A stretch of DNA of 64,000 nt from a virus (IMGVR_UViG_3300020177_000966); one strand, 5' to 3'. Numbered from the stretch's first letter, positions 34,464-61,586 are shown. Numbers and translations: made by a program. Notes: generated from the sequence alone by a model not told the origin.

Positions 34464-34674
34464 TTTATCACTTAGACAACTGCAAACTGAAAGTGCTAGA
34501 GCATTAAGTACAATGCAAGCAACTAACAACAATATTTGGCAGTTTAATAAACAAGCACACCACGATAGTCAAAACTGGTATCGTGCAGTTATTAAGTGGT
34601 ATGTAGATCAATACGGTGACTTGCCTAGTAAAGTTGGACCGGGTAAAGATATAAAGTTGGTAATAGATGTATAA
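34450..34674 (+). CDS. Small hypothetical protein (~74 aa)
   Basis: Fills the gap between the methyltransferase and a radical SAM gene, overlapping both. The probable TTG start at 34450 is uncertain. Confidence 0.5.
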   Translation: MDTSNLSLRQLQTESARALSTMQATNNNIWQFNKQAHHDSQNWYRAVIKWYVDQYGDLPSKVGPGKDIKLVIDV

Positions 34675-35734: not shown

Positions 35735-35745
35735 GTACATATATA

Positions 35746-43024: not shown

Positions 43025-44208
43025 TGGAACCAGTAGCAAGTTATTTTAAATTTAATCCAACTGGCGCATTTAGTGTCGATTGGTATATTGGAAAAAGATG
43101 TAATTATGATTGCAGTTATTGTGTAGATTATTTGCACGATAATCATAGTCCACACGTTCCGTTAGAAAACATGAAGCGTCTTGTTGATGTAGTTTATGAA
43201 GAACATGGCACTAATGTATTTTGGAGTTTGACAGGTGGAGAGCCTACTGTGAATCCAAAGTTTATGGAGTTGTGTAAGTACATTAAAGAAGAAAAAGGTG
43301 CAAGATTTATTAGTATTACTACTAATGGAAGTAGAACTGCAAAATATTTAAAAGAGCTATTCCGATATCTAGACAGTATTACAGTTAGTTTTCATTTTGA
43401 ACACATGGCAGATAAGGTTGATGAATTTATTGAAAAGTTTATTGAACTGGATGATTGGCGTGTGGCATGGAATAAAGAACAAGAAGAAAAAGGACTTAAT
43501 CATAAAGACTTTAAAAACGGTTATACTCGAAAAAATTTAATATTAAGATTTATGGTTTATCCTGAGCAGTTTAATAATATTGAAAAAATGGAAACTGCAT
43601 TTAGGAATCATGGCATTACTAATATTGAACATAGATATATACGTCCACCAGGCGGCAATAGTAATGAACTATTACCTAGAACAAAACTAGACTTTGAAAA
43701 AAATAATGATACAATGGATCCTAAAATACTATTGTCTACGGACGACGAAGTAGAAATTAAGGTAATTGAAACTAGAGAAAAGAAATTTTATAAAGAAGGC
43801 GAAGAAGATAAAATTAAGAGAATTTATGAAAGCACTGTTACTCCAGATAAACGTAAATTAAAGTTTTGGTTCCAAGATGAAGAAAAACAATACAAAGATA
43901 TTGACTTTCATTACAACGAACTTAATTTTGACAAGAAAAATAATTATGAAGGCTGGCTATGTTGGGCAGGTGTAAAACATTTAAAAGTAACTCCTCCGGG
44001 AGACATTTATATTGGCAGTTGTCACGTTGGAGGAAAGAGAGGAAACATTTATGATAAAGACTCAATTGATCTTCCTTTAGAACCTATTAGATGTCCTAAG
44101 TGGAGATGTACAGATAATTTAGATTTAAAAGTTCCTAAGATTAAAGACTGGGAACATTATCATTTAATTAAAGATATGATTGAATGGAAGGTTGACAAAG
44201 ATCAATAA
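43024..44208 (+). CDS. Radical SAM protein (subfamily B)
   Basis: WYIGKRCNYDCSYC; LTGGEP; VSFHFE; C-terminal CWAG...SC...CPKWRC. Confidence 0.9.
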   Translation: MEPVASYFKFNPTGAFSVDWYIGKRCNYDCSYCVDYLHDNHSPHVPLENMKRLVDVVYEEHGTNVFWSLTGGEPTVNPKFMELCKYIKEEKGARFISITTNGSRTAKYLKELFRYLDSITVSFHFEHMADKVDEFIEKFIELDDWRVAWNKEQEEKGLNHKDFKNGYTRKNLILRFMVYPEQFNNIEKMETAFRNHGITNIEHRYIRPPGGNSNELLPRTKLDFEKNNDTMDPKILLSTDDEVEIKVIETREKKFYKEGEEDKIKRIYESTVTPDKRKLKFWFQDEEKQYKDIDFHYNELNFDKKNNYEGWLCWAGVKHLKVTPPGDIYIGSCHVGGKRGNIYDKDSIDLPLEPIRCPKWRCTDNLDLKVPKIKDWEHYHLIKDMIEWKVDKDQ

Positions 44209-44220
44209 GTGTGTTAGTAT
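44192..44220 (+). promoter_or_regulatory. Sigma70-type promoter TTGACA-N17-TAGTAT
   Basis: Perfect -35 at 44192-97, a 17-nt spacer, and -10 TAGTAT at 44215-20, 6 nt before the ATG at 44227. Confidence 0.6.
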
Positions 44221-44226
44221 AGTATT

Positions 44227-45351
44227 ATGACTGAAGACCTAAAATGGAGCAATTATGATTTTACTAAAATTCCTCTTGAGGATATTGTCTCTGTGGGGCA
44301 AAGAACTCTACTCTATAGGGATCTTTTTACTGTTAGTTGGTTGCTCGGCCGTTTTTGTAATTATAAATGCTCTTACTGCTGGCCGTACGCTCGCAGTGAC
44401 AGAAAAGATCATAGACCAACTGTATTATGTCTACGAACAGTGGACGAAATAAAAAGACAAGCAAGAGATAATGGTTTTAACAGCTTCCACTTCTCCTTGT
44501 CGGGAGGAGAGCCTACTTTCCATCCTGGATACTTGGACATTCTCAAACATCTTGCAGAAGATGTAGAAAACACAAACTATACAAGTATACACATGACTTC
44601 AAATTGTAGTAGAAATATGAAGTGGTTTGAAACTTATGTTGATTATGCAAAGCCCTTTCATAGGGCAAGTATTACAGCAAGTCTGCATACAGAACATGTA
44701 AACACAAAGGAGAAGATGCAGGAGTTCGCAGACAAATTAATCCTGTGTCAAGAAAACGATGTACAAATTACAATTAATCAAGTTATGGTTCCTGAATGGT
44801 TTGAAAGAGATTGGGAAAACGCTCTGTTCTTCCACGAGCAAGGTATCAATGTCACTCTTAAGCCTCAGTCCGATCCAACTGCCTCAAGAGTGGTTGATGG
44901 ATATACAGAAGAACAACTTAAAAAACTCTACAACGGAATGCCGCAAAGGGCATACACAGAAAGTAAACGAAAATGGGACGGCAGGCCTAAACCGTCATTC
45001 GAAATACCTAAAGGAATAAATGGCACCAACGACGCTAGTGTACCTTGGCATATGCAAGTAGAATTTGAGGATAAAAATGGAAAAAAATGGTACATGGATC
45101 AAGCTGAGCGTTTTAATGCTTTTAATTTTAATAACTTTAAAGGTTGGAATTGCAATGCCGGATACCAAGGAATCATTATTAGAGAGCCCGACGGTTCCGT
45201 TAAGCGATCCTATTCCTGTCACGATGTGCCGCTTGGAAATATTGAAACAGGATTTAAACTCTTTGATACCCCTATGCCCTGCATTACAAACTCCTGTGTC
45301 TCAAGTGCAGATTCAAAAATACCAAAAAGGAAAGTAGTGTGCCCGGAATAA
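44227..45351 (+). CDS. Radical SAM protein (subfamily B)
   Basis: WLLGRFCNYKCSYC; LSGGEP; ASLHTE; C-terminal CNAG...SC...CITNSC. Confidence 0.9.
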   Translation: MTEDLKWSNYDFTKIPLEDIVSVGQRTLLYRDLFTVSWLLGRFCNYKCSYCWPYARSDRKDHRPTVLCLRTVDEIKRQARDNGFNSFHFSLSGGEPTFHPGYLDILKHLAEDVENTNYTSIHMTSNCSRNMKWFETYVDYAKPFHRASITASLHTEHVNTKEKMQEFADKLILCQENDVQITINQVMVPEWFERDWENALFFHEQGINVTLKPQSDPTASRVVDGYTEEQLKKLYNGMPQRAYTESKRKWDGRPKPSFEIPKGINGTNDASVPWHMQVEFEDKNGKKWYMDQAERFNAFNFNNFKGWNCNAGYQGIIIREPDGSVKRSYSCHDVPLGNIETGFKLFDTPMPCITNSCVSSADSKIPKRKVVCPE

Positions 45352-45962
45352 TTCATATTGAACCAACTTCAAGATGTCCATTACAATGTCCTTTGTGTCC
45401 AAGAACAATATATTCAGATAAAATACAAAATACAGATTGTGATATTGAGCACTATAGTGATTTAACATCTACGTTTGACGAAATTATTATTTGTGGAAAC
45501 CACGGCGATCCAATATATCATAAAGATTTTATCGGATTAATACGTAAGATTAAAGAAAAGAACAACACTGCTAAATTAATTTTACATACTAACGGAAGTT
45601 ATAGAAGTAAAGATTGGTGGAGTAAATTAGCAAAAGTGTTTGATGCCAACGACGAAATTAATTTTAGTATTGATGGTATTGAAAGTAATAATCACATGTA
45701 CCGAGTAAATTCTAAGTGGGATTTAATTGTAAAGGGTATAGAAGCATTTAGAAAAAATAATAGTTCAACTAAGTTAATATGGAAACATATACTTTTTAAA
45801 TATAATCAAAATACTATTACACAAGCATTAGTAATAGCTAAACAATTAAATTTTGATCAGTTTATGATAGTACAAAGTAATCGCAATAGTGATAAATTTA
45901 ATCCTACAATAACAATTAATCAACTTGAAGAAAATATAAAAAATGATCTATCCACGATGTAA
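45339..45962 (+). CDS. Radical SAM core domain (subfamily A) lacking its C-terminal Cys domain
   Basis: CPLQCPLC; CGNHGDP; FSIDG...N..YRVN..W. It ends where its paralogs continue into the SPASM-like domain. Confidence 0.85.
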   Translation: MPGIIHIEPTSRCPLQCPLCPRTIYSDKIQNTDCDIEHYSDLTSTFDEIIICGNHGDPIYHKDFIGLIRKIKEKNNTAKLILHTNGSYRSKDWWSKLAKVFDANDEINFSIDGIESNNHMYRVNSKWDLIVKGIEAFRKNNSSTKLIWKHILFKYNQNTITQALVIAKQLNFDQFMIVQSNRNSDKFNPTITINQLEENIKNDLSTM

Positions 45963-46266
45963 GATTAATAAAGCCGCAGAATATATTGATAGTGATGGTT
46001 ATTATTATCCATGCTGTTGGATAGCTAATCAACCTTATGTTGATGATCTAAAAGAATTTCTCGGAGAAGATCTAAAAGACTTGCATACACAAAATAAATC
46101 CATACAGGATTTAAGGGAAAGTAAAGCATTAACTAAATTAGAAAATAGTTGGAATAAATCAGATTGCTTCTATGCTTGTAAGAAATTTTGTAGTAAAAAT
46201 CCTGCTGACATAAAAAATGAAGGCGGCGCTCACACAATTAACGAACACATTATTTTTAATCTTTAA
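45943..46266 (+). CDS. Stand-alone SPASM/twitch-like Fe-S domain (C-terminal half of the 45339 enzyme)
   Basis: PRC....YIDSDG..YPCCW...ACKKFC matches the C-terminal domain of subfamily A. Confidence 0.75.
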   Translation: MIYPRCKINKAAEYIDSDGYYYPCCWIANQPYVDDLKEFLGEDLKDLHTQNKSIQDLRESKALTKLENSWNKSDCFYACKKFCSKNPADIKNEGGAHTINEHIIFNL

Positions 46267-47437
46267 TAGTTACAAATATATCTGAAAATTGTGGATAACT
46301 TTCAAAAAAGTTTTGTCCTCTATGCTTATCTGTAATTTCTATATATCGTTTAAGATTAGGAAGTAAATAACTATCATCCTTGCTATTCATAAAATTTTTA
46401 ATATAATCTAAATTTTTATTAATTTTTGGGTTAGTACAAGTTTTTTGATAGTTGTTAAATTTTTCTGTAACACGTTTTTTGATATGTTCAGGCAATGATG
46501 TTACACAGAGTTTCTCAGGATATGTTAAGTGTGTTGGATTCATAACTTTAAATCCGTGATCGTTTTCCCACCACCATTCTAAACTTTCAGGCATATTCCA
46601 CACATTGAGTATGCTAATAGTACTACGCAATAGTACATCAAATCCGTGACTCTTTTTAAGTTCTAAAAAACGTTTAGTAACTGCTTCTGTAGTTTCGTAC
46701 TTAGCAGGCCAGCGAATGTATTCACTTTCTGATGGATTAGCACTATCAAAACTAAGAGCAAATTCTACTTTTTTAAATTTACTCCATTTTTCAATCCAGC
46801 TGTCTTTTGGCATAATAGTACAGTTAGTACTATAGTTTAAAAATATTTCACTGCAATCTCTTTCAGCAAGCATTTTATCTACAAGTACCCATTGGTCTTT
46901 AGTCATCAATGGCTCGCCGCCTGTAAATTTTACATGAACTAAATCATTAATAAACGGATATATGTTAGTAATATCACTTTTACTTTTTTCTACTTCATTA
47001 AACGATTTTCCGTAGATTAACTTTTCTTCATTAAACCATTTCCAACTGTATCTACTATCGCACATACGACATGCAAGATTACAGTCATTACTAATAGCAA
47101 GTTCGATCCAACCTATTTTTGGATTTTCAATATCAACTAACTGATCAATTGGCAATGCTTCGTTATCAAGATAGCGTTCACGTAAGCTCTTTTTTCCAGA
47201 CTCTTCTTCTTGATAGCAACGTACACACCCGTCTACTTGTTCACCAGCAAGCATCTTACGACGGATTTCTTCCATCCAGTCACCATAAAATATTTCACTT
47301 AATGTTTTATCGTTTAGGTTATGATCCTTTGGTCTAAACTTTTCAGCAAACCTACAACATGGTTTTACTCGTGCAGTAGGATCAATAAACTGATGATCCC
47401 ATGCCATACTGCAAAATGTTTTACTTGGAATTTTCAT
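46256..47437 (-). CDS. Radical SAM protein with an N-terminal twitch-like domain (opposite strand)
   Basis: FCSMAW......P..RVKPCC...DGCVRC, then CNLACRMC and FTGGEPL. The ATG at 47437 is preferred over the TTG at 47443. Confidence 0.9.
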   Translation of the reverse strand: MKIPSKTFCSMAWDHQFIDPTARVKPCCRFAEKFRPKDHNLNDKTLSEIFYGDWMEEIRRKMLAGEQVDGCVRCYQEEESGKKSLRERYLDNEALPIDQLVDIENPKIGWIELAISNDCNLACRMCDSRYSWKWFNEEKLIYGKSFNEVEKSKSDITNIYPFINDLVHVKFTGGEPLMTKDQWVLVDKMLAERDCSEIFLNYSTNCTIMPKDSWIEKWSKFKKVEFALSFDSANPSESEYIRWPAKYETTEAVTKRFLELKKSHGFDVLLRSTISILNVWNMPESLEWWWENDHGFKVMNPTHLTYPEKLCVTSLPEHIKKRVTEKFNNYQKTCTNPKINKNLDYIKNFMNSKDDSYLLPNLKRYIEITDKHRGQNFFESYPQFSDIFVTIKD

Positions 47438-48218
47438 CTTCAAATTTCTTTACAGGTGTAGGATCTTGAATATTATTTTGACTAAGTCCGTATGCTCGTT
47501 CGTAGCACCACCAACATTGACCACAAGGGATATCTAATTTTTTCGCAATAATTTGATCTCTCCAGTTATCACATGAACATGTTAACGTCATTAATTCGTC
47601 GATTAGATTATATTTTTTATACAGGCTTACAACATCTGCTTTATCTAAGTGAGAAAGCGGTGAAGCATTATATGGTCCTGTGTAAATGTCAAGTGTTCGG
47701 TCTCTATTCTTTTGTCTAAATTCATCATTTGGAAAATGTTTTCTAAACTCAACAGGTGGATTTTTTGTATTTCCGTTAACTTCAAAATTAACAACTTTAG
47801 ACATTAACATTTCTCTAATTTTAAGTATAATAAATTCTTTCTTGCCAACCCCTGACATAGTTGCTTCTTTTGTACACTGTTCTAAAGGAATAGCGTATTC
47901 TATAATATCTCCAAATTTAAAGTCTAATAATTCTTCTACTTTTTTTATAATAGCAAGAGGTTGTACAGGTAACTTAGTAGGGATATCAAAATGTATAGGT
48001 CTTACGTTGATAGTATAATTATTATCTTTTACTGTCTTTGCTACTAGATAGAGTAACAAGGCACTATCCATACCTCCACTTATTTGAACTCCCATGTTCT
48101 CCCATTCGGGATTGATAGGCACTATAGCATCTAATCCGCTTTTAGCTTTATACGTATGTTCTATTATTTTTTGATTCTTAGGAGGATATGAACCTTTGCT
48201 TCTGTATACATATGCCAT
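47421..48218 (-). CDS. QueC-like PP-loop ATPase (adenylating enzyme) with a C-terminal Zn-binding Cys cluster
   Basis: PP-loop ISGGMDSALL; C-terminal TCSC...PCGQCWWCYER. Confidence 0.7.
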   Translation of the reverse strand: MAYVYRSKGSYPPKNQKIIEHTYKAKSGLDAIVPINPEWENMGVQISGGMDSALLLYLVAKTVKDNNYTINVRPIHFDIPTKLPVQPLAIIKKVEELLDFKFGDIIEYAIPLEQCTKEATMSGVGKKEFIILKIREMLMSKVVNFEVNGNTKNPPVEFRKHFPNDEFRQKNRDRTLDIYTGPYNASPLSHLDKADVVSLYKKYNLIDELMTLTCSCDNWRDQIIAKKLDIPCGQCWWCYERAYGLSQNNIQDPTPVKKFEDENSK

Positions 48219-48292: not shown

Positions 48293-48925
48293 GTGATTAA
48301 CCTCTACAACCATTTAACAGCATACGGAACAGTGTTTAAATTAAATCTTGTTCTAAATGATGTTAATAAGTTCCTTAACCTTACTGAACAAGACTTTGAG
48401 TATGTACCTTACAACCCAAGGAAGTCTGTTAATAGGTACGGATTAAGTATTACAAGTCTTGATGGAGGCGTCTCTGGTATTCCTGATCTAGATAGTTTAA
48501 TTGAATACAATAAAGATAATAATACAGACTATAGTGAAAGAGATTTTAAAACGTACACAGATGTGTATAATAAATCTCCTGAATTACAAGCATGTCTAGC
48601 ACCACTAAAGCAACATATTTTTAGAACTCATATTTTAAAACTCGACCCCGGCGGATATTTTCCTCCTCATAGAGATAATAAGACTACAAAAATAGATAGT
48701 TTTAGATTACTAATTCCGTTACGCAATGTTAACCCACCAAATTTTAGTTTTATAATTGATGGTAAGATTGAGCATTGGGATAATGGATGTGTGTACTTTG
48801 TAGATACTCTTAAAACACATTACCTATTTAATACTAGTTTTAAACCTTCATATATGATAGTTGTAAATGTAGACCTTAATGAAGAAACTGTAAATATTAT
48901 TTCAGATAATTTGAGTTACCTATGA
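48293..48925 (+). CDS. Fe(II)/2-oxoglutarate oxygenase, Asp/Asn beta-hydroxylase-like
   Basis: ILKLDPGGYFPPHRD (HxD)...RLLIPL...VDTLKTHYLFN (distal His). GTG start. Confidence 0.75.
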   Translation: MINLYNHLTAYGTVFKLNLVLNDVNKFLNLTEQDFEYVPYNPRKSVNRYGLSITSLDGGVSGIPDLDSLIEYNKDNNTDYSERDFKTYTDVYNKSPELQACLAPLKQHIFRTHILKLDPGGYFPPHRDNKTTKIDSFRLLIPLRNVNPPNFSFIIDGKIEHWDNGCVYFVDTLKTHYLFNTSFKPSYMIVVNVDLNEETVNIISDNLSYL

Positions 48926-49479
48926 TTGTTACAACAATTACTGATGAACACATACCTAAGTTAGAAATATTTTGCTCTAAAGCAAAGCAACTAGGCTACG
49001 AAAATAATTCAAGTTTAAAAGCAATGAAGTTTGATTGGTGCAAAGAACACGGTGAATTTTTTTGCGCAATTAAAGATAGTGAAATAGTGGCAGTAGCAGG
49101 ATGTCATCCTTTGCCTGAAGTTGGTGATACAGCATGGCGCATTATGTTTAGAGGCTGTGAGTTACCTCAAACTGATACCTTTCGGGGACTAGGTAAAGGA
49201 GATTGGAACAGTATTACACAACGTGAAATGATTCCTCGTTTTATAGAATGGTGCCCTACTGATCAACTATATATTAGCACAAACATACATCATGAACATT
49301 CTAATGGTAAAGCCGCTCGTAATCACAAGTTGATGGGATTATTGGCAAAACAGAAAATACTTGACAAACATAGTGAAATGATGTTATATTACACTGAGCA
49401 AACTGTCTGGAAATTAAATATTAATGAATACACTAGACGTAGAAGTTTGCTGAAAGGAGACTATGTGGTACAATCCTAA
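48922..49479 (+). CDS. Hypothetical protein, possibly GNAT-fold
   Basis: The FFCAIKDSEIVAVAG...WRIMFRG pattern is reminiscent of GNAT beta strands; the match is weak. Confidence 0.35.
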   Translation: MIVTTITDEHIPKLEIFCSKAKQLGYENNSSLKAMKFDWCKEHGEFFCAIKDSEIVAVAGCHPLPEVGDTAWRIMFRGCELPQTDTFRGLGKGDWNSITQREMIPRFIEWCPTDQLYISTNIHHEHSNGKAARNHKLMGLLAKQKILDKHSEMMLYYTEQTVWKLNINEYTRRRSLLKGDYVVQS

Positions 49480-49720
49480 ACACTTAGACGAAGCAAAGAA
49501 TAAAGCCGGTAAGCCTGATGCGGGCTATTGGTGGCACTTTCGTTTAGCAATGAACGAATTTTTCTTTTTATTAGCAGTAACTATAGGAAGTTTGATTCAC
49601 GCTATTTTTCCTTGGGTATTAGATTTTAAACTCCTTGAATGGAGAATTAATCGTTTAAAAGTCCTCAAAGAAAAATTGCCTGATGATCCTCAATTAAAGA
49701 AGGTACATTTTGATGACTAA
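49463..49720 (+). CDS. Small hydrophobic protein, DUF6356-like
   Basis: YWWHFRLAM...SLIHAIFPW resembles the Y.EH..FA...HA.FP pattern. Confidence 0.45.
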   Translation: MWYNPKHLDEAKNKAGKPDAGYWWHFRLAMNEFFFLLAVTIGSLIHAIFPWVLDFKLLEWRINRLKVLKEKLPDDPQLKKVHFDD

Positions 49721-50549
49721 CGTATTAGACTTATTAGCATATAAAAACGGTGAATACAAACCGTTAGGAGAGATTGGACCAAGTATACTTGACTTTGGTT
49801 TCATTCATTGTGATGCTACATATGATGTTATGCCAGTATACAACGGCAAAGCATTTTGTTATGAAAGACACTTGCAAAGATTCCGTAATAGTGCAGAACG
49901 CTACGGACTAACTATTCCAGACGTCGATCCTCTAGAGATTATTAAAGAATTAGCAAAGCGTAATCCAATTGATAATGCATTTGTATGGTTTATAATCTGG
50001 AGAGGATTTCCGCCTAGTGGTAATCCTAGAGACTTAGAAAACTGTCCTGTAAATTTTGCAATGTATATTAAACCAAGTTATCCTATAGCAAGTACACCGA
50101 TGGTAAAACTGTATTTGGACAAAAATACAAATAGAGTTAACGATGATTACTATGGACAAGAATATAAAAACATGGCTTGGATAGATTTAACACTTAGTCA
50201 ACGTAAAACTCCTGCCGGCTTTGATACTACAGTATTAGTTGATGTAGACGGATTTGTTACAGAAGGTCCAGGGTTTAATGTTGGAATTGTTAAAGACGGA
50301 GTAATTAAAACATCAGATAAGAATGTTCTTAAAGGTATTACTATGAGTGTTGTAGAAGATATTGCTAAAGAAAACAATATTACTTTTAAGCGTATGCCAA
50401 TTACACAACAAATGTTTTTATCAGCAGACGAAGTTTTTATTACAAGTTCAAGTGGAGGTGTGACACCAACGACTATCACAGGTTCGGTTACTGATCTATT
50501 AATACAAAAGTACGAGGATAAGAAAACACAGTATGGAACTGAACTTTGA
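49713..50549 (+). CDS. Class IV PLP aminotransferase, (R)-selective amine transaminase-like
   Basis: GFIHCDATYDV, HLQRF..SA, YKNMAWIDL, TEGPGFNV, VLKGIT and ADEVFITSSSGG. Confidence 0.85.
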   Translation: MTNVLDLLAYKNGEYKPLGEIGPSILDFGFIHCDATYDVMPVYNGKAFCYERHLQRFRNSAERYGLTIPDVDPLEIIKELAKRNPIDNAFVWFIIWRGFPPSGNPRDLENCPVNFAMYIKPSYPIASTPMVKLYLDKNTNRVNDDYYGQEYKNMAWIDLTLSQRKTPAGFDTTVLVDVDGFVTEGPGFNVGIVKDGVIKTSDKNVLKGITMSVVEDIAKENNITFKRMPITQQMFLSADEVFITSSSGGVTPTTITGSVTDLLIQKYEDKKTQYGTEL

Positions 50550-51210
50550 CACTATCTTAAAACAAGGATGTAATATAAGTTCTAGTGGTACTACAGGTAC
50601 ACCTAAGCAAATTTATAGAGATCCTGAAAATCTAAAACACTGCATTAATACTGCAATTACTGCTCAAAAACTAACCAAAAATAGTAGTGTATACACAGTT
50701 ACTAGAATGACTCATGCAGGTGGGTTATTACTTCAAAGTTTGCCAGCATATACATTAGGGTGTGATATAACTATTGAAAAGTTCAACGCATATACCTTTT
50801 TAAAGCGTTTTAAGCGTCATACACACACGTTTATTGCTCCTGCTATGTGCGAAGCACTACTAAGCACTAAGGGCTTTAAAACAGCTGATTTGACGGGTAA
50901 ATTTGTTGCAATGGGCAGTGATCCAATTCCTAAACATCACATACAAGCATTTATAGATCAAGGTGCTACAGTTTTAGCAAATTGGGGTATGAGTGAAATT
51001 GGACCATGTGTAATTAATAAGTTGTACAAGCCTGGAGACACAGCAGAAGATAATATTTTGGGCAATACATTTTGGTGCAATTATAAAGTTAAAGAAAATC
51101 AATTATATGTAAAAAGTCCAATGTGTATATATGACGATTGGTTTGCAACAGGCGATCTTGTAACATATAAGAATAAAGGATTATATTATTTAGGAAGACT
51201 TGATGTATAA
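50533..51210 (+). CDS. Minimal adenylate-forming (ANL/AMP-binding) enzyme
   Basis: SSSGTTGTPK, WGMSEIG and FATGDL....YYLGR, in only 225 aa. Confidence 0.8.
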   Translation: MELNFDTILKQGCNISSSGTTGTPKQIYRDPENLKHCINTAITAQKLTKNSSVYTVTRMTHAGGLLLQSLPAYTLGCDITIEKFNAYTFLKRFKRHTHTFIAPAMCEALLSTKGFKTADLTGKFVAMGSDPIPKHHIQAFIDQGATVLANWGMSEIGPCVINKLYKPGDTAEDNILGNTFWCNYKVKENQLYVKSPMCIYDDWFATGDLVTYKNKGLYYLGRLDV

Positions 51211-51928
51211 TAATTCAATTACAGTTAATTTTCCTATGGGATCTGGTGGACATATTGCAGGAAGAATTATTTCTAGTTGTAATAATGTCAGTTGGTATGA
51301 TCATATACAAAACGGAATCAATCCTTGGGAACCGTTTGATATTATGCACGATTCTAATTTTTCAAGATTACATTTCAATAAAAGATTTAAAGGTGCTTTA
51401 GGTAAAGGAGTATGTGACAAAACTATTCCTCCTGTGTTAGATATGGCCGAAAAGCAAGGTAGAGAATATTCACAAGACGAAATTAAAAAATGGAAACAAC
51501 ATCTTTATCCTAACAATTTTGTATATACACTGCACTCAGATTTAGATAGAGTAAAGAATTTTTTTAATCCGGCAAAACATTTTGTAATCATTCCTGAAGA
51601 TATAGAACTATTATATACTAGGTGGATGAATAGTACATGTCATTATTATGTAGATCCAAAAAATAGAAATTATCTTTTTAAAGATTTATATACTGATAAA
51701 GCAAACGAACACGGAATAACATTTAAAGAATGTTTAATTAACGACCTTACTATGCAGATAAACGGTTACAAACAAAAGGCAGATGATAAAGATTTTATTA
51801 TTAAAGAAGTTTCTCAATTATACGATAAAGAATTTTTCTTAACATTATGTAACAAGTTTGATCTTAAATTTAACGAAACAGCTTTTATCAAAACAGTAGA
51901 GTTTGCTAAAGCCGTGTCACATCTTTAA
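51200..51928 (+). CDS. Hypothetical protein (242 aa); weak sulfotransferase-like N-terminus
   Basis: N-terminal VNFPMGSGGHI loop; otherwise unrecognised. Confidence 0.35.
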   Translation: MMYNNSITVNFPMGSGGHIAGRIISSCNNVSWYDHIQNGINPWEPFDIMHDSNFSRLHFNKRFKGALGKGVCDKTIPPVLDMAEKQGREYSQDEIKKWKQHLYPNNFVYTLHSDLDRVKNFFNPAKHFVIIPEDIELLYTRWMNSTCHYYVDPKNRNYLFKDLYTDKANEHGITFKECLINDLTMQINGYKQKADDKDFIIKEVSQLYDKEFFLTLCNKFDLKFNETAFIKTVEFAKAVSHL

Positions 51929-52642
51929 TAATTCAAAATATATTCTTGTATTATCTTTTTTGTACTGTTCTAAATTACAATTATATTCTTTAGCAAGTTT
52001 GTAAGCGAATTCGAAGGTCCATGGGAATATATCTACATATGGTCCTTTTGGCCATAGTATTCCCGGATTAACTCTAAAGTACATTCTACCGTTAGTGTCT
52101 AATAAATTATATAACTTATCAAATCTTATACGGATATCATTTTCGTCACCAAAATTTAAACTGCCAAACACAATCATGTGATCATATTTTTCATCTACAT
52201 TAAACTCTAAAATATCTACCATATAGTCTGCGTTATCGTTAAATGGATCAATGCCTGTTAGATTTTTAATACGTGGTTTAAATTGATTATATCCGCATCC
52301 AAAGTCTAATACATTACGTGGATTCTGTTTGTTTATTCGTTCCACAATATTCCAACCACTGTAAGTATGATTGTCAGTATTAGGTTTCCAAATTTCTCCA
52401 AAGAATCTTTTCATATAAAAGGTATCTAACGATTGTACAAATTGTTCAATAGTACCAGTTAAGTCTAAATGTTCAATATCTAACTCGTGCATGATGTTTT
52501 GTGCAAACTTTTCTTTACGCACAGGAGTAAACGGTAGGTCGTCTACTATACTATCCTTGTTTAATTGTAAACCTTTGTACTTAGATAAATTAAAGGTTTC
52601 TTCTAAATTTTTCATAACTAGCGAAAAAATTCGTGTATTCAT
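51917..52642 (-). CDS. Class I SAM methyltransferase with an N-terminal ACP-like helical domain
   Basis: VLDFGCG, LTGIDPF and YDHMIVFGSL. A GGAG RBS precedes the ATG at 52642. The ACP resemblance is tentative. Confidence 0.65.
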   Translation of the reverse strand: MNTRIFSLVMKNLEETFNLSKYKGLQLNKDSIVDDLPFTPVRKEKFAQNIMHELDIEHLDLTGTIEQFVQSLDTFYMKRFFGEIWKPNTDNHTYSGWNIVERINKQNPRNVLDFGCGYNQFKPRIKNLTGIDPFNDNADYMVDILEFNVDEKYDHMIVFGSLNFGDENDIRIRFDKLYNLLDTNGRMYFRVNPGILWPKGPYVDIFPWTFEFAYKLAKEYNCNLEQYKKDNTRIYFELLKM

Positions 52643-52672
52643 AATTTTTCTCCACATTTTTTCAAAAAAATG

Positions 52673-52706
52673 TTCTCCTGATATAATTAATTATATACAA
52701 GGAGAA
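52673..52706. promoter_or_regulatory. Inverted repeat between divergent genes with a central 16-bp perfect palindrome
   Basis: ATATAATTAATTATAT (52681-96) is self-complementary. The flanking TTCTCCT/AGGAGAA pair covers the tctA RBS. Confidence 0.6.
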
Positions 52707-52710
52707 AATA

Positions 52711-54144
52711 TTGGCTTCGATATTGGCACTACTCGCAGGAACATTTTATGGATTAATAATTGGTATTCTGCCAGGTGCAGGAGCAACTACAGGTTTAATA
52801 TTTGTATTTTCATTTATTACTTTATTTCCAGATCCGTATCTAGCAGTTATATTTGTTATGGCAGTTGTAGCCGCAAGCACAACAGGTGATACTTATACAG
52901 GTGTACTGTTAGGAATACCTGGTGCAAACTCAGCCGCGGCAACTATGGTAGACGGCTTTCCATTAGCACTACAGGGTAAAGCAACATATGCTATTAGCGC
53001 CGCAGTAACTACAAGTACATTGAACGGATTAATATGGGGGTCACTTACATTCTTCTTGTTACCTTATTATACTGATCTAATAATGATATTTGGTGTTCCA
53101 GAATTATGGGCATTTACAATGTTAGCGTTAGTATGCGTAACATTTATAACAAATAAGTTTTGGGTTAGAAGTGTAATTGCATTGTGCTTTGGTATGTTTA
53201 TAGGATTAATAGGAGTTGATCCTACAACTAATGTAGACCGATGGACCGGCGGTTGGGAATATCTTGGCGCAGGCGTACAATTAATGCCGTTAGTTGCCGG
53301 ATTGTTTGCTATTCCAGAATTATTAAGCGGTCTTAAATATCGTACAAATACTAGCAATCCAGCATTTGCAAATGGTACACAAACTAAAGAAGGAATACTT
53401 GCTGTCTGGAATAATAAACGTGATGCATTGCGTGGAGGAATCATTGGCGCATTTGTCGGCTTATTGCCCGGATTAGGCGGCGCAGTTGCAGATTGGATGG
53501 CATACAGTTCGACAGTTGCAAGTCATCCTAAAGACAAGTTTGGTAATGGAAATATCAAAGGTGTTATAGGACCAGAAGGTGCTAACAATGCACAAAAAGC
53601 AACCAGCATGATTCCTACAGTACTGTTTGGTATTCCAGGCGCACCCTTTGCTGCCATTGTAATGGCCTTGTTTGCATATTTAAATTTTGAATTAGGTACC
53701 TTAGAGCTTGCAAATGACACTAAATTCTTTGATAGTATGTTATACGGCTTTATGCTTGCAACAGTGCTTGTAGGCGCTGTATGCTTGTTTACGACGCCAT
53801 TTATAGCCCGAATAGCACAAATACCCTACAAATACTACTTTCCGTTGCTATTAGGCTTTATAGTACTTGCTTGTGTACAATATACAGGCGGTTGGGAAGA
53901 TTACTTTATACTTGCTATATGTAGTGTGGTAGGACTATTAGCAAAGAAATACAAATTTAGCAGACCTGCACTGCTATTTGCCTTTATTCTATCTGACAGA
54001 ATAGAGGCTCTTACAATTCAAATGTCAGGACTTTATACATTTGATAAACTGTTAGATAAACCAATATTCTTAGGATTAGTTTTTATAATAATTGTAACAC
54101 TAATTTGGGCATTAAAATCAAAAAGGAGAATAGATTATGCGTAA
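52711..54144 (+). CDS. tctA: Tripartite tricarboxylate transporter permease, TctA family
   Basis: GILPGAGAT, LLGIPGANSAAATMVDGFPLALQGKA, GPEGANNA, IPTVLFGIPG and FSRPALL; many hydrophobic segments. TTG start with an AGGAG RBS. Confidence 0.9.
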   Translation: MASILALLAGTFYGLIIGILPGAGATTGLIFVFSFITLFPDPYLAVIFVMAVVAASTTGDTYTGVLLGIPGANSAAATMVDGFPLALQGKATYAISAAVTTSTLNGLIWGSLTFFLLPYYTDLIMIFGVPELWAFTMLALVCVTFITNKFWVRSVIALCFGMFIGLIGVDPTTNVDRWTGGWEYLGAGVQLMPLVAGLFAIPELLSGLKYRTNTSNPAFANGTQTKEGILAVWNNKRDALRGGIIGAFVGLLPGLGGAVADWMAYSSTVASHPKDKFGNGNIKGVIGPEGANNAQKATSMIPTVLFGIPGAPFAAIVMALFAYLNFELGTLELANDTKFFDSMLYGFMLATVLVGAVCLFTTPFIARIAQIPYKYYFPLLLGFIVLACVQYTGGWEDYFILAICSVVGLLAKKYKFSRPALLFAFILSDRIEALTIQMSGLYTFDKLLDKPIFLGLVFIIIVTLIWALKSKRRIDYA

Positions 54145-55189
54145 GTTAATTATGAGTTTAGTATTAGTAATGTTTGCTACTGTAGCAAATGCAGATTATA
54201 CGATGGTAGTACCACAAAAACCAGGAGATGGTACAAGTGTTTGGGCAGAAATCGTTGCTAAAGAATTAGAAAAATATCTCAATGAAGATATTAATATTGT
54301 ACATATTCCTGGCGCTCGAGACATTCCAGGATTTGATACATTTCATAACGAAATGCAATATGACAATGATGTAATTATGGTAAGTCATGGTGGTAACGGT
54401 GTAAGTTTCCTACAAGAAGAAGTTGATTATAACTATGCCGAATACGAAAGTATTGGACTTATGAACTTGAATATTATTGTAGGCAAGAATCGTGCTATTG
54501 ATTTAGACTATGGTGGTATTAGATTTGCGGCAGGTTCAGGTATGGTTCCAGAAGCATTCGCAATGACACTTCTACTATGTGGACCAGACAAAACAGTTGA
54601 TGAATATATCGCTTGTTTTAAAGAGAACGTAACATGGGTTAAAGGCATGAGCGGTGGCGAACGTCGACTAGCATTTAAACGTGGTGAACTAAACGCTACT
54701 AGAGAAAATCCAGCGGCATATAAAAAGCATGTTGAATCAGATGATAATTCAGAAATTTGGTTTCATCATGGTATTCTAAACAGTGAAACAGGAGATCATG
54801 GAGATGATCCAAACTATCCTGGATACCAACTTGAAATACTATTTGAAAAACGTTGGGGTGTTAAGCCAAGCGGAGATTTCTATGATTCATATAAACTTGT
54901 AAAAAGTTTTCGCGACGGTATGCAAAAAGCATTGTGGGTACGCAAAGGCAATCCAAATACTGCCAAATTACAGCAAGCATTATATGATATGTCTTTAAAT
55001 AAAGATAGTAAGAAAATTATAGAAAACAAAGTTGGCGTTTATAATTGGAAAATTGGCGCTGACGGAAATGCACATAGAGATACATTAATGAGTCTTGTAA
55101 CACTAGATGCATTAACAAATCTTGTTAAATTCAATAAAGAAGCATTAGGATTAGCTAGTGTACTTAAACCAGGAATAATTAAAAAGTGA
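54137..55189 (+). CDS. tctC: Tripartite tricarboxylate transporter substrate-binding protein, TctC/Bug-like (divergent)
   Basis: Signal peptide, then YTMVVPQKPGDGTSVWAEIVAKEL, equivalent to the Bug-family I.lvVP..pGG..D motif. Adjacent to tctA. Confidence 0.75.
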   Translation: MRKLIMSLVLVMFATVANADYTMVVPQKPGDGTSVWAEIVAKELEKYLNEDINIVHIPGARDIPGFDTFHNEMQYDNDVIMVSHGGNGVSFLQEEVDYNYAEYESIGLMNLNIIVGKNRAIDLDYGGIRFAAGSGMVPEAFAMTLLLCGPDKTVDEYIACFKENVTWVKGMSGGERRLAFKRGELNATRENPAAYKKHVESDDNSEIWFHHGILNSETGDHGDDPNYPGYQLEILFEKRWGVKPSGDFYDSYKLVKSFRDGMQKALWVRKGNPNTAKLQQALYDMSLNKDSKKIIENKVGVYNWKIGADGNAHRDTLMSLVTLDALTNLVKFNKEALGLASVLKPGIIKK

Positions 55190-56349
55190 ACAATATAATA
55201 CTTTCTTTCGAGAATGGTGATACATATACAAAAGAACAATTTGATTCTTTAGCACAAAGTTATGCTAAAGAATTAATTGATGCAGGATACGATAAAACTT
55301 GTAGATTAGGAGTATACAGTAATTGTACTAATCTAATGAAAATATACGGAGTAATGAGTGTATGCAGTGTTGTAGTAATGGACTACAAAGCAACAGAGAT
55401 CGAACGTAAGTATTATGATGTTGATATATGGGACGATGTATTACCAGAGCCTAGATATAATCAATGTAATGATGACGAGATAACAGCGTTTGTATCAAGC
55501 GGTAGTACTGATGCACTTAGATTAATACCACTAACAAGAGATGATCATGACACTGAAGGTTTAGATACAAACATACAAATACATGCTAATATTACAAATA
55601 AAGATTCTACTGTAAATTGTATTCCACTTTGGGCTTGTATAGGCTTTCAATTATTCTCAATTTGTTATAGAACTGGTGCAACATATTATGTTTTAGATAA
55701 CGTATGGGAATCATGGCCTAAAGTTAAACCTACGTTCTTTGTAGCTAATCCTAGTATTTTATTAAAATTAATGAAGTATTGCAAAGTACCGTACGAAACT
55801 ATGAGTGTACGACACATTCGTACAGTCGGAGCACCTATGTACAAAGATTTTAAATATGAAGTACAAAATTATTTTAATTGTATTACAACTGATTCATATG
55901 GGCTAAATGAAACAGGAACAATTAGTATTATGCATTATCCTCAAAAACATGGTAGCGTTGGATTTGTGTTACCAAATAAAACTGTAACATTTGATAATGG
56001 TGAAATTGTAGTTGATGGTTATCATACTGGAGACTTAGGATATATCGACGATGAAGGATTTTTGTTTATTACTGGTAGAGTTAAAGATGTAATTAACCAA
56101 GAAGGTATTAAAATTATGCCTTACGAAGTAGAAGAAGCATTAATTAAATGTGGAGCAATAGATTGTGTAGTGTTTGGCTACGATAGTGTTTATGCAGTAG
56201 TTGTTGGTCAAATAGATACAGAACAATTATCTAAAGAAATTGCATGGTATAAAATACCTAAGAAGGTCTTTTACGTAGAAAGTATTCCACGTAAAGGACA
56301 AGGTAAAATAAGTAGAAAAGAATTACTTAAACAGTATAACTTAGACTAA
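55186..56349 (+). CDS. Adenylate-forming (acyl-CoA synthetase-like) enzyme
   Basis: SSGST (degenerate P-loop), DSYGLNETG, TGDLGYIDDEGFLFITGRVKDVI, PYEVEEAL and IPRKGQGKISRK. Confidence 0.85.
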   Translation: MNNIILSFENGDTYTKEQFDSLAQSYAKELIDAGYDKTCRLGVYSNCTNLMKIYGVMSVCSVVVMDYKATEIERKYYDVDIWDDVLPEPRYNQCNDDEITAFVSSGSTDALRLIPLTRDDHDTEGLDTNIQIHANITNKDSTVNCIPLWACIGFQLFSICYRTGATYYVLDNVWESWPKVKPTFFVANPSILLKLMKYCKVPYETMSVRHIRTVGAPMYKDFKYEVQNYFNCITTDSYGLNETGTISIMHYPQKHGSVGFVLPNKTVTFDNGEIVVDGYHTGDLGYIDDEGFLFITGRVKDVINQEGIKIMPYEVEEALIKCGAIDCVVFGYDSVYAVVVGQIDTEQLSKEIAWYKIPKKVFYVESIPRKGQGKISRKELLKQYNLD

Positions 56350-57504
56350 GTTAACCCATGATCCGTTTTCGCGGCCTTGGAATTTTTCAGTATCTGAATT
56401 ATAAATAACCATTCCGTTAACTGGAGTAAGTGCATCACGTTCAATAGTAGTCAAACTAGCAAACTGATGATATCCAGTGTTAATACTGTTGTTTATTGTT
56501 GCTGTACCTTGTACTTCAAGGTCAGTAGTAATTTTTGCATCGCCTGCTACGTGTAATACGTTATCAGGTCTGTTAGTACCTAAGCCAAGTCTGCCTTTAC
56601 TATTCCAAGTCATAACTTGTGCAAGTGTAACATTGCCCGTTTGGTTTGATGGTAGGAATAATATTCTTCCAGGTATAATACCGTCTGACACTGTTTCGTC
56701 TAGATCAACTGCAATTTTAATTTGTCCAGCTAATGTTTGTTGAGTTCCGTCCCAACCAAAACCGTGAATATCTGTAAGTGCGTCACCTGTAGTGCCACCA
56801 ATTACAGCTAACGGATTGTCAAGAGTACCACGTGAACCTTCAGTTCTAATTTTTGGTCCTGTTGCACCATCTGCAGAATGTGCTTGAATTAAGAGACTGT
56901 TAACTGGAGCAGGTGCGTCTTGTCTAATTGTAAGAGTTGTTTCAGTTAGAATAGGTCCAACAATAAAACCTTTAATACCGTCTACTAGTAGTCCGCTATC
57001 ATCACCAAACACACTACCTTTAGTATCACCTGTATGGAATCCAGTAGTATTACCAAAGTGTGTACCTGTACTGTCACCAATTACGTTACCAGTGTGTGTA
57101 CCTGTAGTATCGCCAATTACATCACCTACAATATTGCCACTACTAATAACAGAAGTAGTTTCAATAGGTCCAACAATTTTGCCGTTAATTGCATCAACTA
57201 GGAGCGTTGAATCGTCACCGTAAATATTACCACGAATGTCTAGTGCTGGGTTATCCGTCGCCGCCCAGTTTGCACCATTATAAACTAAGATTTGATCTTT
57301 TTGTGCGGCTAATGCTTGTACATTGCCTAGATCTTCTAAGTTTTGCGTTGATACTGATACTGGAATACCACCTTGTGTGGCTCCGTCACCTACAAAGACT
57401 TCTTTGCTATCTGTTGTATAAACGAGTTCACCTTCAGCTGGCGTATAACCAGGACTGCTTTGAAGTGCAGTCTTAGTGCCTCGTTTTAATCGTAAAGTAC
57501 CCAT
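56341..57504 (-). CDS. Tail-fibre-like structural protein with an Mtd/hyaluronidase-type N-terminal motif
   Basis: LRLKRGT....PAEGELVYTTDSKEVFVGDG; duplicated G..YGDDS.LLVD.I.G.IVGPI; RLGLGT.RPD..LHV.G; C-terminal GMVIYNSDT.KFQG. Confidence 0.7.
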   Translation of the reverse strand: MGTLRLKRGTKTALQSSPGYTPAEGELVYTTDSKEVFVGDGATQGGIPVSVSTQNLEDLGNVQALAAQKDQILVYNGANWAATDNPALDIRGNIYGDDSTLLVDAINGKIVGPIETTSVISSGNIVGDVIGDTTGTHTGNVIGDSTGTHFGNTTGFHTGDTKGSVFGDDSGLLVDGIKGFIVGPILTETTLTIRQDAPAPVNSLLIQAHSADGATGPKIRTEGSRGTLDNPLAVIGGTTGDALTDIHGFGWDGTQQTLAGQIKIAVDLDETVSDGIIPGRILFLPSNQTGNVTLAQVMTWNSKGRLGLGTNRPDNVLHVAGDAKITTDLEVQGTATINNSINTGYHQFASLTTIERDALTPVNGMVIYNSDTEKFQGRENGSWVNLV

Positions 57505-58779: not shown

Positions 58780-59058
58780 TTAGTTGTACTTTAATAGTGG
58801 ACATGCAAGAACGAAATAAGAAAGTTCTTTTGCATCTTCAAATCCGACTCTCATAACAGTATCTATTTTATTCTCTTTAGTAATACCTATTGTTTTGGCT
58901 AGGTAATAACGATGCTTCAAATTTTGTTGAATCCATTTTACCATTGCTTTTTCTGTGTTGTATGTAAATTTTAAATCAATGCAAGATAAATGAGGAGATT
59001 GATGTTCTAATCTCCTTGTATTAAAATAATCATGTGCTGATATCTTATTCTTTATCAT
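58780..59058 (-). CDS. Hypothetical protein (92 aa)
   Basis: ATGA overlap with the vWA gene. Confidence 0.55.
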   Translation of the reverse strand: MIKNKISAHDYFNTRRLEHQSPHLSCIDLKFTYNTEKAMVKWIQQNLKHRYYLAKTIGITKENKIDTVMRVGFEDAKELSYFVLACPLLKYN

Positions 59059-60326
59059 GCCGCTTCATCGTAATGCGCCGTCATACCAAACGGTGCTTTT
59101 AAATTTTTATCGTGATGACTATGAACTACAAATACTGTATCACAGTAATCGTCTTCGCCCCAGCTACCAAACGGATACCCGTCTGTAAACATCAAAAACT
59201 TCTTAGGCTGGATATCATTGTCTTTCATATATTTCCAGTTACAATCAAAGCTGGTTCCGCCGCCGCCCATAATTTCGTAGTCTAGCAAATCTTCACCGCT
59301 ATCTGCTGTAAAGTCTTGTTCATTATATACATCAGTATCAAAGCACCAAATCTTAATCTTGTAGTCTTTGTATTCGTCCATAATGCCTTTGACTTCACCT
59401 AAGAAGTCAGCCGCCTGTGCATTACCAATTGAACCGCTCATATCTAATGCAATGCAGATATCAATTGTTTCATCAAAATTCATACCGGGCAAAATAGCAC
59501 CAGTATGCCAGCCTTTGCGGCTAGGGCGACTAAATGTATAATCGTTTTTAATAGTACTTTGAATCTGTTGACGAAGCAATTCACGCCAATTCATTTTAGG
59601 TTCTGTAAGCTCTTTGATCATACGCTGTACAGCGCCTGGAACGTTGCCTGCACCAGCGGCTTGTGCCGCAGACATCATACTTTCTTTAATTTCATCCTTA
59701 ATCTTCTTCATTTCTTCTTTTGAATAAGTTGGATGACTTTTATTTTTTCCTTCTTCTGAATTATTATCGCCTGGACCTTCTTCCCAGTCAATGTGTTCGT
59801 CTAGCAATTCACCTAGTTGTTTTAAAAATTCTTGACCGTTTTCTTCTGCCTTTTTAAATAGATCATCGTATACTTCTTCAGAAGTCCAACCTTCATATTT
59901 GAAGTCTTGATAACATTGTACGATTGAAACCATTTCTCCAATACGATCACGCACTAGTGTATTATTTACGATATAGTCTGCGGCAATGTTATGTAATACA
60001 GGATTACGATCTTCTCTACGTGACATATGATCAAATACACAATGCAGAATCTCGTGTGCAATTACAAACTCAATTTCTTTATTTGAAAGTGCATTAAAAA
60101 ATTGAGTGTTAAAATATAAATGGCGGCCGTCAGTTGCCGCAGTAGGACACCAGTCATCACATGCTTCTACTTTAAGTCTAGTAGCCATGTTACCGAAGAA
60201 AGGATGGCGCAATAATAGGCCTACACGAGCTACAATAACCCTATCAAGAACTTCTTCTCGCATTACTTTAAGTTCTTCTGGAGTAATATCTGGATTAGGT
60301 GCGTAACCTTTAGTATCGATGCTCAT
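59055..60326 (-). CDS. vWA-domain protein with an N-terminal HExxH metallopeptidase-like domain (DUF2201-type)
   Basis: TAATDG..LYFN, AHEILH, NIAADYIVN, MIDAS DMSGS, and GGGGTSF. Confidence 0.85.
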   Translation of the reverse strand: MSIDTKGYAPNPDITPEELKVMREEVLDRVIVARVGLLLRHPFFGNMATRLKVEACDDWCPTAATDGRHLYFNTQFFNALSNKEIEFVIAHEILHCVFDHMSRREDRNPVLHNIAADYIVNNTLVRDRIGEMVSIVQCYQDFKYEGWTSEEVYDDLFKKAEENGQEFLKQLGELLDEHIDWEEGPGDNNSEEGKNKSHPTYSKEEMKKIKDEIKESMMSAAQAAGAGNVPGAVQRMIKELTEPKMNWRELLRQQIQSTIKNDYTFSRPSRKGWHTGAILPGMNFDETIDICIALDMSGSIGNAQAADFLGEVKGIMDEYKDYKIKIWCFDTDVYNEQDFTADSGEDLLDYEIMGGGGTSFDCNWKYMKDNDIQPKKFLMFTDGYPFGSWGEDDYCDTVFVVHSHHDKNLKAPFGMTAHYDEAA

Positions 60327-60358
60327 TTTGTTTCTCCTTTTCCCTAACTGTTATATAC

Positions 60359-60387
60359 AGTATACATGTATTTACTGTTGAAGTCAA
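60359..60387 (-). promoter_or_regulatory. Sigma70-type promoter TTGACT-N17-TATACT upstream of the vWA gene
   Basis: -35 at 60387-82, -10 at 60364-59, 17-nt spacer. The spacer also contains TAAATAC. Confidence 0.7.
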
Positions 60388-60391
60388 GCTG

Positions 60392-60422
60392 AAAAGGACG
60401 TTTTTATACAAAGAGAACGTCC
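60392..60422 (-). terminator. Probable intrinsic terminator after the MoxR gene
   Basis: GGACGTT/AACGTCC 7-bp stem with a 13-nt loop, followed by TTTT on the minus strand. Confidence 0.5.
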
Positions 60423-60437
60423 AAACTCTGTAGCCAT

Positions 60438-61529: not shown

Positions 61530-61586
61530 TTTATATTCCTCTTGTGTTTCAGTCAATGCCATAACTTAGTTTCTAAGTATGTATAT

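Follow-up and report, generated by a model that had tools for sequence, protein, structure and literature searches.

We analysed a 64,000-nucleotide stretch of DNA (the window) from the virus IMGVR_UViG_3300020177_000966, an uncultured marine giant phage (jumbo phage), with regard to a block of ten open reading frames (ORF1 to ORF10) at positions 48,293 to 56,349 that encodes a TctA-family permease, a secreted solute-binding protein and a set of putative tailoring enzymes. As judged from comparative sequence analysis, the permease and its binding protein are an autonomous, mobile and strongly conserved phage importer cassette to which nested enzyme sets appear to have been added, namely a methyltransferase and cupins almost everywhere, a trio of ORF5, ORF6 and ORF2 relatives in some lineages, and a short ANL enzyme as well as a transaminase or a halogenase in fewer. 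We tentatively read the block as a phage-borne module by which a small molecule is taken up and reworked, through the import, activation and tailoring of an organic acid, a reading that is a serious candidate while falling somewhat short of probable. The source is a 145,946-bp virus record with an estimated completeness of about 40%; the GC content is about 33%.

The evidence that carries this reading comes from the comparison of viral loci, of which at least 38 with a TctA relative were collected, together with further loci seeded by ORF10, ORF6 and distant binding proteins, and synteny was compared over 36 distinct TctA loci. In most of these 36 loci, methyltransferase, TctA and TctC form a common core, and the methyltransferase is the most constant neighbour of the TctA/TctC pair, including in two loci (L064 and L068) where TctA has 32-45% identity and the gene order is rearranged. 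Cupins with an HxD..H triad recur beside this core, belonging either to the ORF1 family or to a 221-aa family (f19) with an invariant triad. A family with a P-loop motif (f24) and small membrane proteins of the DUF6356 and DUF6552 families are further recurring partners; a PDB profile search with f24 gave no matches, and a profile-profile comparison of ORF6 with f24 found no relationship, so that f24 is not assigned to the sulfotransferases here.

The trio of a truncated ANL protein (ORF5), ORF6 and ORF2 lies on TctA/TctC-bearing contigs in all 16 of the 16 ORF6-seeded loci, in one of which (L078) the TctA/TctC pair is inverted. In other phages, ORF6 and ORF2 are fused into one protein of 417 aa, and the two are therefore tied together. 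The strongest evidence that importer and trio are one co-moving unit, independent of the radical S-adenosylmethionine (radical-SAM) array that lies next to the block in the window, is provided at the sequence level by two loci of a distant phage (L089/L090), in which the module is neighboured by ThyX, PTPS and UvdE and runs in the order mini-ANL, ORF6::ORF2 fusion, f24, TctA (47% identity), binding protein (49%), f19 cupin, Amidohydro_2-family gene (L089 17484-18395) and methyltransferase. Within 10 kb of this module in L089, where many genes are unannotated, the precomputed Pfam annotations include no radical-SAM enzyme or glycosyltransferase. An initial annotation of the window, made from the sequence alone, had proposed that the importer and the enzymes act together and might feed an upstream pathway of glycosyltransferases and radical-SAM enzymes. 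The first part is supported at the genetic level for some of the enzymes, as the trio stands beside TctA/TctC in the 16 loci and in L089/L090. The expected co-occurrence with the radical-SAM array is frequent across lineages but not obligatory, because the module of L089 shows no radical-SAM annotation.

Relatives of ORF10, the short ANL enzyme, follow just 3' of the binding protein wherever enough upstream sequence is available, with the exception of L052; an alpha/beta-hydrolase-like gene sometimes stands between the two, and these relatives are confined to jumbo-phage sublineages. When the binding-protein profile was searched against genome contigs, three contigs of metagenome-assembled genomes (5.5, 11.3 and 61 kb) were found at 64-70% identity, and these look like mis-binned phage DNA. 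Across the loci examined the nesting is one-way, in that the enzymes never occur without the importer and the importer occurs without the enzymes, and import followed by activation and tailoring is therefore favoured, since this is the pattern expected if the enzymes act on the imported compound. Uptake plus tailoring is supported by these comparisons, the initially suggested coupling of uptake to activation less so: TctA/TctC are widely found without either ANL enzyme, and uptake is thus not dependent on ANL activation.

The two importer proteins are recognisable by complementary means. ORF8 is predicted to be a complete TctA permease, with at least ten hydrophobic segments and an AGGAG ribosome-binding site 7 nt upstream, and identities to its relatives amount to 65-93% across jumbo-phage loci and 32-49% in more distant loci. 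ORF9 carries a Sec-type signal peptide ending VANA (followed by DY); it has no Pfam match, as the TctC threshold is not reached, and its remote relatives match PF03401 weakly. Its AlphaFold2 model, built from an alignment of 43 sequences, has a predicted local distance difference test (pLDDT) score of 94, and the top 16 Foldseek matches in the PDB are all Bug/TctC proteins (E 3e-9 to 2e-7, TM score up to 0.67), including BugE, MatC, TphC, BugD, a terephthalate-binding protein, Polaromonas TctC, AdpC and Bug27. An N-terminal VVPxxxGGxT motif aligns with BugD and TctC. According to this model, ORF9 is a secreted binding protein of the TctC/Bug fold. The family is abundant in metagenomes, with at least 1653 clusters at 90% identity and at least 457 representatives at 50% identity. 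In the tripartite tricarboxylate transporters (TTT; TC 2.A.80), such as Salmonella TctCBA, a TctA permease likewise stands beside a signal-peptide-bearing protein of the Bug/TctC fold, so that the phage system shares two of the three gene-content features and differs in TctB. It further differs in a binding protein that falls below the Pfam TctC threshold and forms a large phage-specific clade, and in its occurrence in phages of several morphotypes. No ORF beside TctA/TctC is left over for TctB, and neither of the small membrane proteins near the transporter, DUF6356 and DUF6552, is TctB. From its sequence, the phage transporter would thus work like a TTT importer, in a two-gene variant without TctB.

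The two ANL proteins of the block differ considerably. ORF5 comprises motifs A3 to A8, namely SSSGTTGTPK (A3, residues 16-25), HAGG, GMSEIG (A5), ATGD (A7) and the A8 hinge GRLD, at which it ends (residue 224 of 225). Its matches cover the middle of full-length models, and it is without the N-terminal ~170 aa and without the whole C-terminal domain and the A10 catalytic lysine. In 8 homologues, at 43-77% identity, the motifs are retained together with the truncated length, and for this reason a decaying fragment or pseudogene was rejected as an explanation. ORF10, whose start overlaps the ORF9 stop, carries YGLNETG, HTGD, GRVKD and GKISR (A5, A7, A8 and the A10 lysine), and both its N- and C-terminal domains are represented, the former in a shortened version. 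Among solved structures, its best matches are oxalate-, 4-coumarate-, o-succinylbenzoate- and malonate-CoA ligases (E 1e-21 to 1e-15). A single-sequence search with ORF10 returned near-identical contigs only and an alignment query was required for wider relatives; about 39 phage-type clusters (374-391 aa) then scored well, followed by a gap to the cellular ANL enzymes at E 1e-21. By these sequence criteria, ORF10 is assigned as an ANL adenylate-forming enzyme of a phage-specific clade. Compared with oxalate-CoA ligase, 4-coumarate-CoA ligase, MenE and malonyl-CoA synthetase, it shares A5, A7, A8 and the A10 lysine but is about 120 aa shorter, has a variant P-loop and is without close cellular relatives, whereas ORF5 has A3 to A8 and corresponds to the central 225 aa only. 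There is no detectable similarity between ORF5 and ORF10, and the idea that the two represent a split enzyme or a pair of paralogues was therefore rejected.

Among the remaining enzymes, ORF6 is modelled with a sulfotransferase-like fold. Its AlphaFold2 model has a moderate pLDDT of 68, and the top Foldseek matches in the PDB are the sulfotransferase domains 4gox (E 5e-4) and 4gbm (E 2e-3), with TM scores of about 0.45-0.5; sulfotransferases are also in the majority among structural matches in the AlphaFold database, with P-loop kinases ranking lower, and a feature search (Atlas) leads to Sulfotransfer_1/3. A PDB profile search gave chance-level matches only. The loop FPxGxxGH is without the usual lysine of PAPS-dependent sulfotransferases, which are characterised by 5'-phosphosulfate-binding (5'-PSB) and 3'-phosphate-binding (3'-PB) motifs and a catalytic histidine, and the invariant residues H112 and R141 could possibly be equivalent to sulfotransferase residues. 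ORF2, which is probably an acyltransferase, has no Pfam match and gave chance-level hits only in a PDB profile search, and it aligns at 31-35% identity with the C-terminal half of the ORF6::ORF2 fusion proteins. ORF1 scores 26.8 bits against PF05118 (E 5e-6, cut-off 22.6), and its HxD...H triad (H126, D128, H176) is invariant in 22 distinct homologues. In the methyltransferase ORF7, motif I LDFGCG (residues 117-122; LDxGCG in the family) is invariant across 31 homologues, as are the acidic residues of motif II/III; PDB profile matches to S-adenosylmethionine (SAM) methyltransferases are weak (E 0.014-0.02), and Pfam matches were obtained for one homologue (Methyltransf_23) and not for ORF7 itself. 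ORF3 has a single hydrophobic segment (residues 33-53), and a homologue in a sister locus matches PF19883 with E 2.5e-10.

The transaminase ORF4 seems to be closest to the (R)-selective amine transaminases: its leading PDB matches are named as, or group with, these enzymes (best E 1e-35), followed by canonical branched-chain aminotransferases from 3e-27 and D-amino acid aminotransferases from 5e-22, and its substrate class cannot be assigned because the margin over the branched-chain enzymes is modest. Like the Aspergillus-type (R)-amine transaminases (PDB 6fte, 4ce5, 4chi), ORF4 has the HxDxTYDV motif, a lysine in KNxxW (K153, which aligns with the template lysine) and TEG(S/P)GFN, here TEGPGFN; it differs from them in the loop that follows the second specificity motif and in this motif itself, which reads FVW where the best templates have FVE.

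The ten ORFs tile the block with overlapping or abutting stops and starts (Table 1), and they form three units, ORF1 to ORF6, ORF7, and ORF8 to ORF10. Each start in the first unit overlaps or abuts the preceding stop, and ORF8 to ORF10 overlap likewise, ORF8 and ORF9 by 8 bases (ORF9 start at 54137, ORF8 stop at 54144). They are taken as real genes rather than chance ORFs because homologues of all ten are retained in many phage contigs. Promoter and terminator scans gave counts at chance level; a promoter-like site precedes TctA together with the AGGAG site, and both are sequence features only. The ten contiguous genes and most family calls of the initial annotation agree with these results: TctA has a full-length PF01970 match and TctC a model whose best matches are all Bug/TctC, the Fe/2-oxoglutarate oxygenase lies above its Pfam cut-off with an invariant triad, the DUF6356-like protein is near its cut-off and has a clear sister homologue, the class IV transaminase has both fold and catalytic lysine, the methyltransferase on the minus strand has its invariant motifs, and the second ANL enzyme has a complete motif set including the A10 lysine. 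Three refinements are needed. The "minimal ANL" had been called an adenylating enzyme, which is not supported for ORF5 as it stands, since it is without the C-terminal domain on which adenylation by ANL enzymes depends; the "unknown ORF" is indeed a conserved gene but is not featureless, given the modelled fold of ORF6; and the "possible GNAT", ORF2, has counterparts that are fused to ORF6-like proteins in other phages.

Table 1. Genes of the block and its 5' neighbour, in window coordinates
Gene	Predicted product	Coordinates	Strand	Basis
QueC-like	PP-loop ATPase	47421..48218	-	Pfam QueC E 6e-7, C-terminal part only; divergent from ORF1
ORF1	Fe(II)/2-oxoglutarate-type cupin hydroxylase, Asp/Arg beta-hydroxylase family	48293..48925	+	PF05118 (Asp_Arg_Hydrox)
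ORF2	GNAT-like protein	48922..49479	+	Language-model feature matches to N-acetyltransferase clusters (Atlas)
ORF3	Small DUF6356-like protein	49463..49720	+	PF19883 E 9e-5, just under cut-off
ORF4	Fold-type IV pyridoxal-phosphate (PLP) transaminase	49710..50549	+	PF01063 (Aminotran_4) E 3e-35
ORF5	Truncated ANL core ("mini-ANL"), 225 aa	50533..51210	+	PF00501 E 9e-16, profile positions 170-352 only
ORF6	Sulfotransferase-like (P-loop) fold	51200..51928	+	AlphaFold2 model and Foldseek; always directly after ORF5
ORF7	Class I SAM-dependent methyltransferase	51917..52657	-	Conserved motifs
ORF8	TctA-family permease	52711..54144	+	PF01970 E 2e-93, covers 1-422 of 423
ORF9	Secreted TctC/Bug-fold solute-binding protein	54137..55189	+	Signal peptide, AlphaFold2 model, Foldseek
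ORF10	Short ANL, 387 aa	55186..56349	+	PF00501 E 2e-15, 56.9 bits (cut-off 29.9)

A number of observations weigh against the import-and-tailoring reading. Adjacency alone is weak evidence, because islands next to tail-fibre genes gather unrelated accessory genes, and the block is indeed mosaic. ORF4, together with ORF3, is present only in the lineages of the window/L016 and of L017/L024; the window ORF4 is 92% identical to that of L017, whose flanking ORF6, ORF7 and TctA are only 43-75% identical, and 73% identical to that of the nearest relative L001, whose flanks are 88-100% identical. Because of this discrepancy, which marks a clear recombination patch within the operon, ORF4 is taken to be an accessory, recently exchanged cassette. 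In sister loci, the slot of ORF3 and ORF4 is taken by a flavoenzyme of the Trp-halogenase family (f22; PF04820 E 4e-58, L047 3425-4495), with homologues in L046, L003, L027, L004, L042 and L023 and with nitroreductase-family and SGNH-like genes upstream. Several of the enzymes also raise doubts: the GNAT-like call for ORF2 rests solely on feature similarity, that for ORF6 on a moderate-confidence model, ORF5 is without the C-terminal domain, and the P-loop (A3) of ORF10, SSGSTDxxR, is conserved across its family and departs from the consensus. A family search for TctB (PF07331) found none in the 146-kb record, of which the estimated completeness has been given above, whereas TctB is present beside TctA in L072, which carries a cellular-type relative of the binding protein.

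Two further observations of this kind are the occurrence of TctA/TctC without any ANL enzyme in other loci and, in an SU10-like podovirus (L065/L066/L067), of the pair alone within the structural module; in L065, the binding protein (10001-11077) and TctA (11081-12589) have adaptor/unknown genes on one side and a Gly_rich_2 protein on the other, and tailoring enzymes are not recognisable in the vicinity. The importer can therefore work, or be selected, alone. This would fit an explanation in which TctA/TctC are a free-standing pair of auxiliary metabolic genes that import acids of the tricarboxylic acid cycle type, as fuel or as 2-oxoglutarate co-substrate, and in which the neighbours are unrelated island genes. 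The mosaic island with its cassette exchange speaks for this explanation, as do the changing partners of the pair elsewhere: it is found beside T4-type neck genes together with QueC-like, GNAT and radical-SAM genes, a QueC/ATP_bind_3 gene directly follows TctA in a distant T4-like phage contig (L062), in other loci the pair is partnered by a 2-oxoglutarate oxygenase, and in L070/L071 (507-3717) an OMP-decarboxylase-family gene (218 aa) separates TctA from a TctC-like gene. The ligands named in the titles of Bug/TctC PDB entries, which include malate, aspartate, glutamate and adipate, and the inclusion of viral tctA among auxiliary metabolic genes, with its role left open (PMC4164917), are also in its favour. 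However, the methyltransferase and the cupins remain beside the pair even where TctA identity is 32-49% and the gene order is rearranged, the ORF5/ORF6/ORF2 trio is never apart from it in the loci examined, and the start/stop overlap suggests that ORF10 is translationally coupled to ORF9, so that we consider a free-standing nutrient pair distinctly unlikely.

Returning to import and tailoring as the preferred reading, we propose that ORF9 would be exported to the host periplasm during infection, where it would capture an organic acid and deliver it to TctA, which would import it. Once the acid is in the cytoplasm, its carboxylate might be activated by ORF10, a role suggested by its complete motif set and by di-acid and aryl-acid CoA ligases as its nearest solved relatives, and the ORF5 core would possibly join in this activation. 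Subsequent acyl transfer could be performed by ORF2, sulfo- or phosphoryl-type transfer by ORF6, methylation by ORF7, hydroxylation by ORF1 and, in the lineage of the window only, transamination by ORF4; the end product might be either a free metabolite or a substituent that is handed to the neighbouring radical-SAM/glycosyltransferase pathway. The more specific claim that several uncultured marine phage groups carry a self-contained small-molecule pathway with a dedicated importer, which turns one particular dissolved organic acid into a new metabolite of use to the phage, is doubtful at present, and that the conversion proceeds by adenylation, acyl transfer, sulfo/phosphoryl transfer, methylation and hydroxylation is a similarly speculative proposal. 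As for the cargo, enzymes of the Trp-halogenase, nitroreductase, Amidohydro_2 and OMP-decarboxylase families mainly have aromatic or heteroaromatic acids as substrates, and the Amidohydro_2 family includes aromatic-acid and iso-orotate decarboxylases. The presence of these accessory families in sister loci is a weak lead that the imported acid could be aromatic or heteroaromatic; according to their PDB entry titles, solved Bug/TctC proteins also bind terephthalate, and the OMP-decarboxylase-family gene of L070/L071 possibly hints at a heteroaromatic carboxylate, for example an orotate-like one.

With respect to the fate of the product, the module could be the supply arm of one large pathway that decorates the surface or the virion; the acid, after import and activation, would then end up as a substituent on a glycan or on a virion component made by the glycosyltransferase/radical-SAM array next to the block. 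The block lies between tail-fibre genes in the window and abuts about 13 radical-SAM/SPASM genes, and radical-SAM genes are also found a few kb from TctA/TctC in L021, L006, L061/L062, L064 and L070. In addition, the methyltransferase-TctA-TctC core of L010/L015 has a GT4 glycosyltransferase upstream, and a family that occurs upstream in L026/L030 (f27) has motifs that, read by eye, look like those of a DegT-type sugar aminotransferase. However, the trio module of L089 sits beside nucleotide-metabolism genes and apart from annotated radical-SAM enzymes or glycosyltransferases, the SU10-like podovirus carries the pair without such enzymes, and a Pfam scan of positions 48293-56349 found neither a carrier protein nor a recognisable transferase for loading sugars with acyl groups. 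A role as supply arm is thus unlikely in our view, albeit worth bearing in mind.

Finally, the enzymes might modify a macromolecule directly, either tail-fibre proteins, in the manner of ribosomally synthesised and post-translationally modified peptides, or DNA bases, with the transporter being incidental. The toolkit has a peptide-modifying character, as it comprises radical-SAM/SPASM enzymes, an Asp/Asn-hydroxylase family member and a methyltransferase, with Trp-halogenase and nitroreductase families in sister loci; the ORF6 model also matches tyrosyl-protein sulfotransferases, besides the P-loop kinases mentioned above, and a QueC-like gene flanks the block. Such a direct modification rests on family resemblance only, no precursor-peptide or DNA-transferase gene was identified within the block, and the tight and repeated linkage to a solute importer would be left unexplained, which makes this explanation very improbable. 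Under the import-and-tailoring reading, the QueC-like gene may itself be part of the module.

The block is located between the radical-SAM array and a downstream fibre gene. On its 5' side, lysis, baseplate and tail-fibre genes are followed by the array of about 13 radical-SAM/SPASM genes at 31620-47443, and this region also holds a single ORF of 4987 aa (6230-21193, plus strand) between a baseplate gp25-like gene and tail-collar fibre genes. On its 3' side, all on the minus strand, follow the Mtd_N-type fibre gene, a DUF2201/AAA pair and replication genes. The fibre-like protein directly 3' of the block (56341-57504) has an Mtd_N (major tropism determinant N-terminal) domain and internal repeats of the GDxTGxH type, and the pair (59055-61562) consists of a DUF2201 metallopeptidase/VWA-like protein and a MoxR-type AAA ATPase, which adjoin the island in related jumbo-phage contigs too (69-92% identity).

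Transporters encoded by viruses are commonly interpreted as simply boosting nutrient supply, and the cyanophage phosphate-binding protein PstS is a virus-encoded auxiliary gene of nutrient uptake. A megablast search of the block against deposited phage genomes gave no match, and tblastn with TctA gave matches of 24-30% identity only, in dubious or unannotated records; on this tblastn basis, a close TctA appears to be present in no deposited phage genome and the system in no cultured phage. In the searchable literature, viral tctA is mentioned only by Roux et al. 2014 (PMC4164917), who found a tctA domain match of unknown role on SUP05 viral contigs, and in the table of a review (PMC6359870). 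As with PstS and the SUP05 viral tctA, the phage would supply a binding protein and/or transporter that alters the uptake of the infected cell. The present system differs from both in that permease and binding protein occur together and are tied to a methyltransferase, hydroxylases, a GNAT-like/sulfotransferase-like pair and ANL enzymes, a linkage that points to a chemical conversion of the cargo, beyond nutrition. It is this genetic coupling of the importer to a small tailoring pathway that is unusual, in a family that is undescribed and abundant in marine metagenomes.

Taken together, a binding-protein-dependent importer is inherited with enzymes that would activate and modify its cargo, in phages that are very abundant in the ocean. 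If this proves true, these phages would alter what their hosts take up from dissolved organic matter and would make a new compound from it. This would amount to viral auxiliary metabolism of a new kind and would offer unexplored enzyme chemistry, including a TTT importer without TctB, a clade of 387-aa ANL enzymes and an ANL core without its C-terminal domain. The ligand of one soluble protein, ORF9, would open the whole question to testing.

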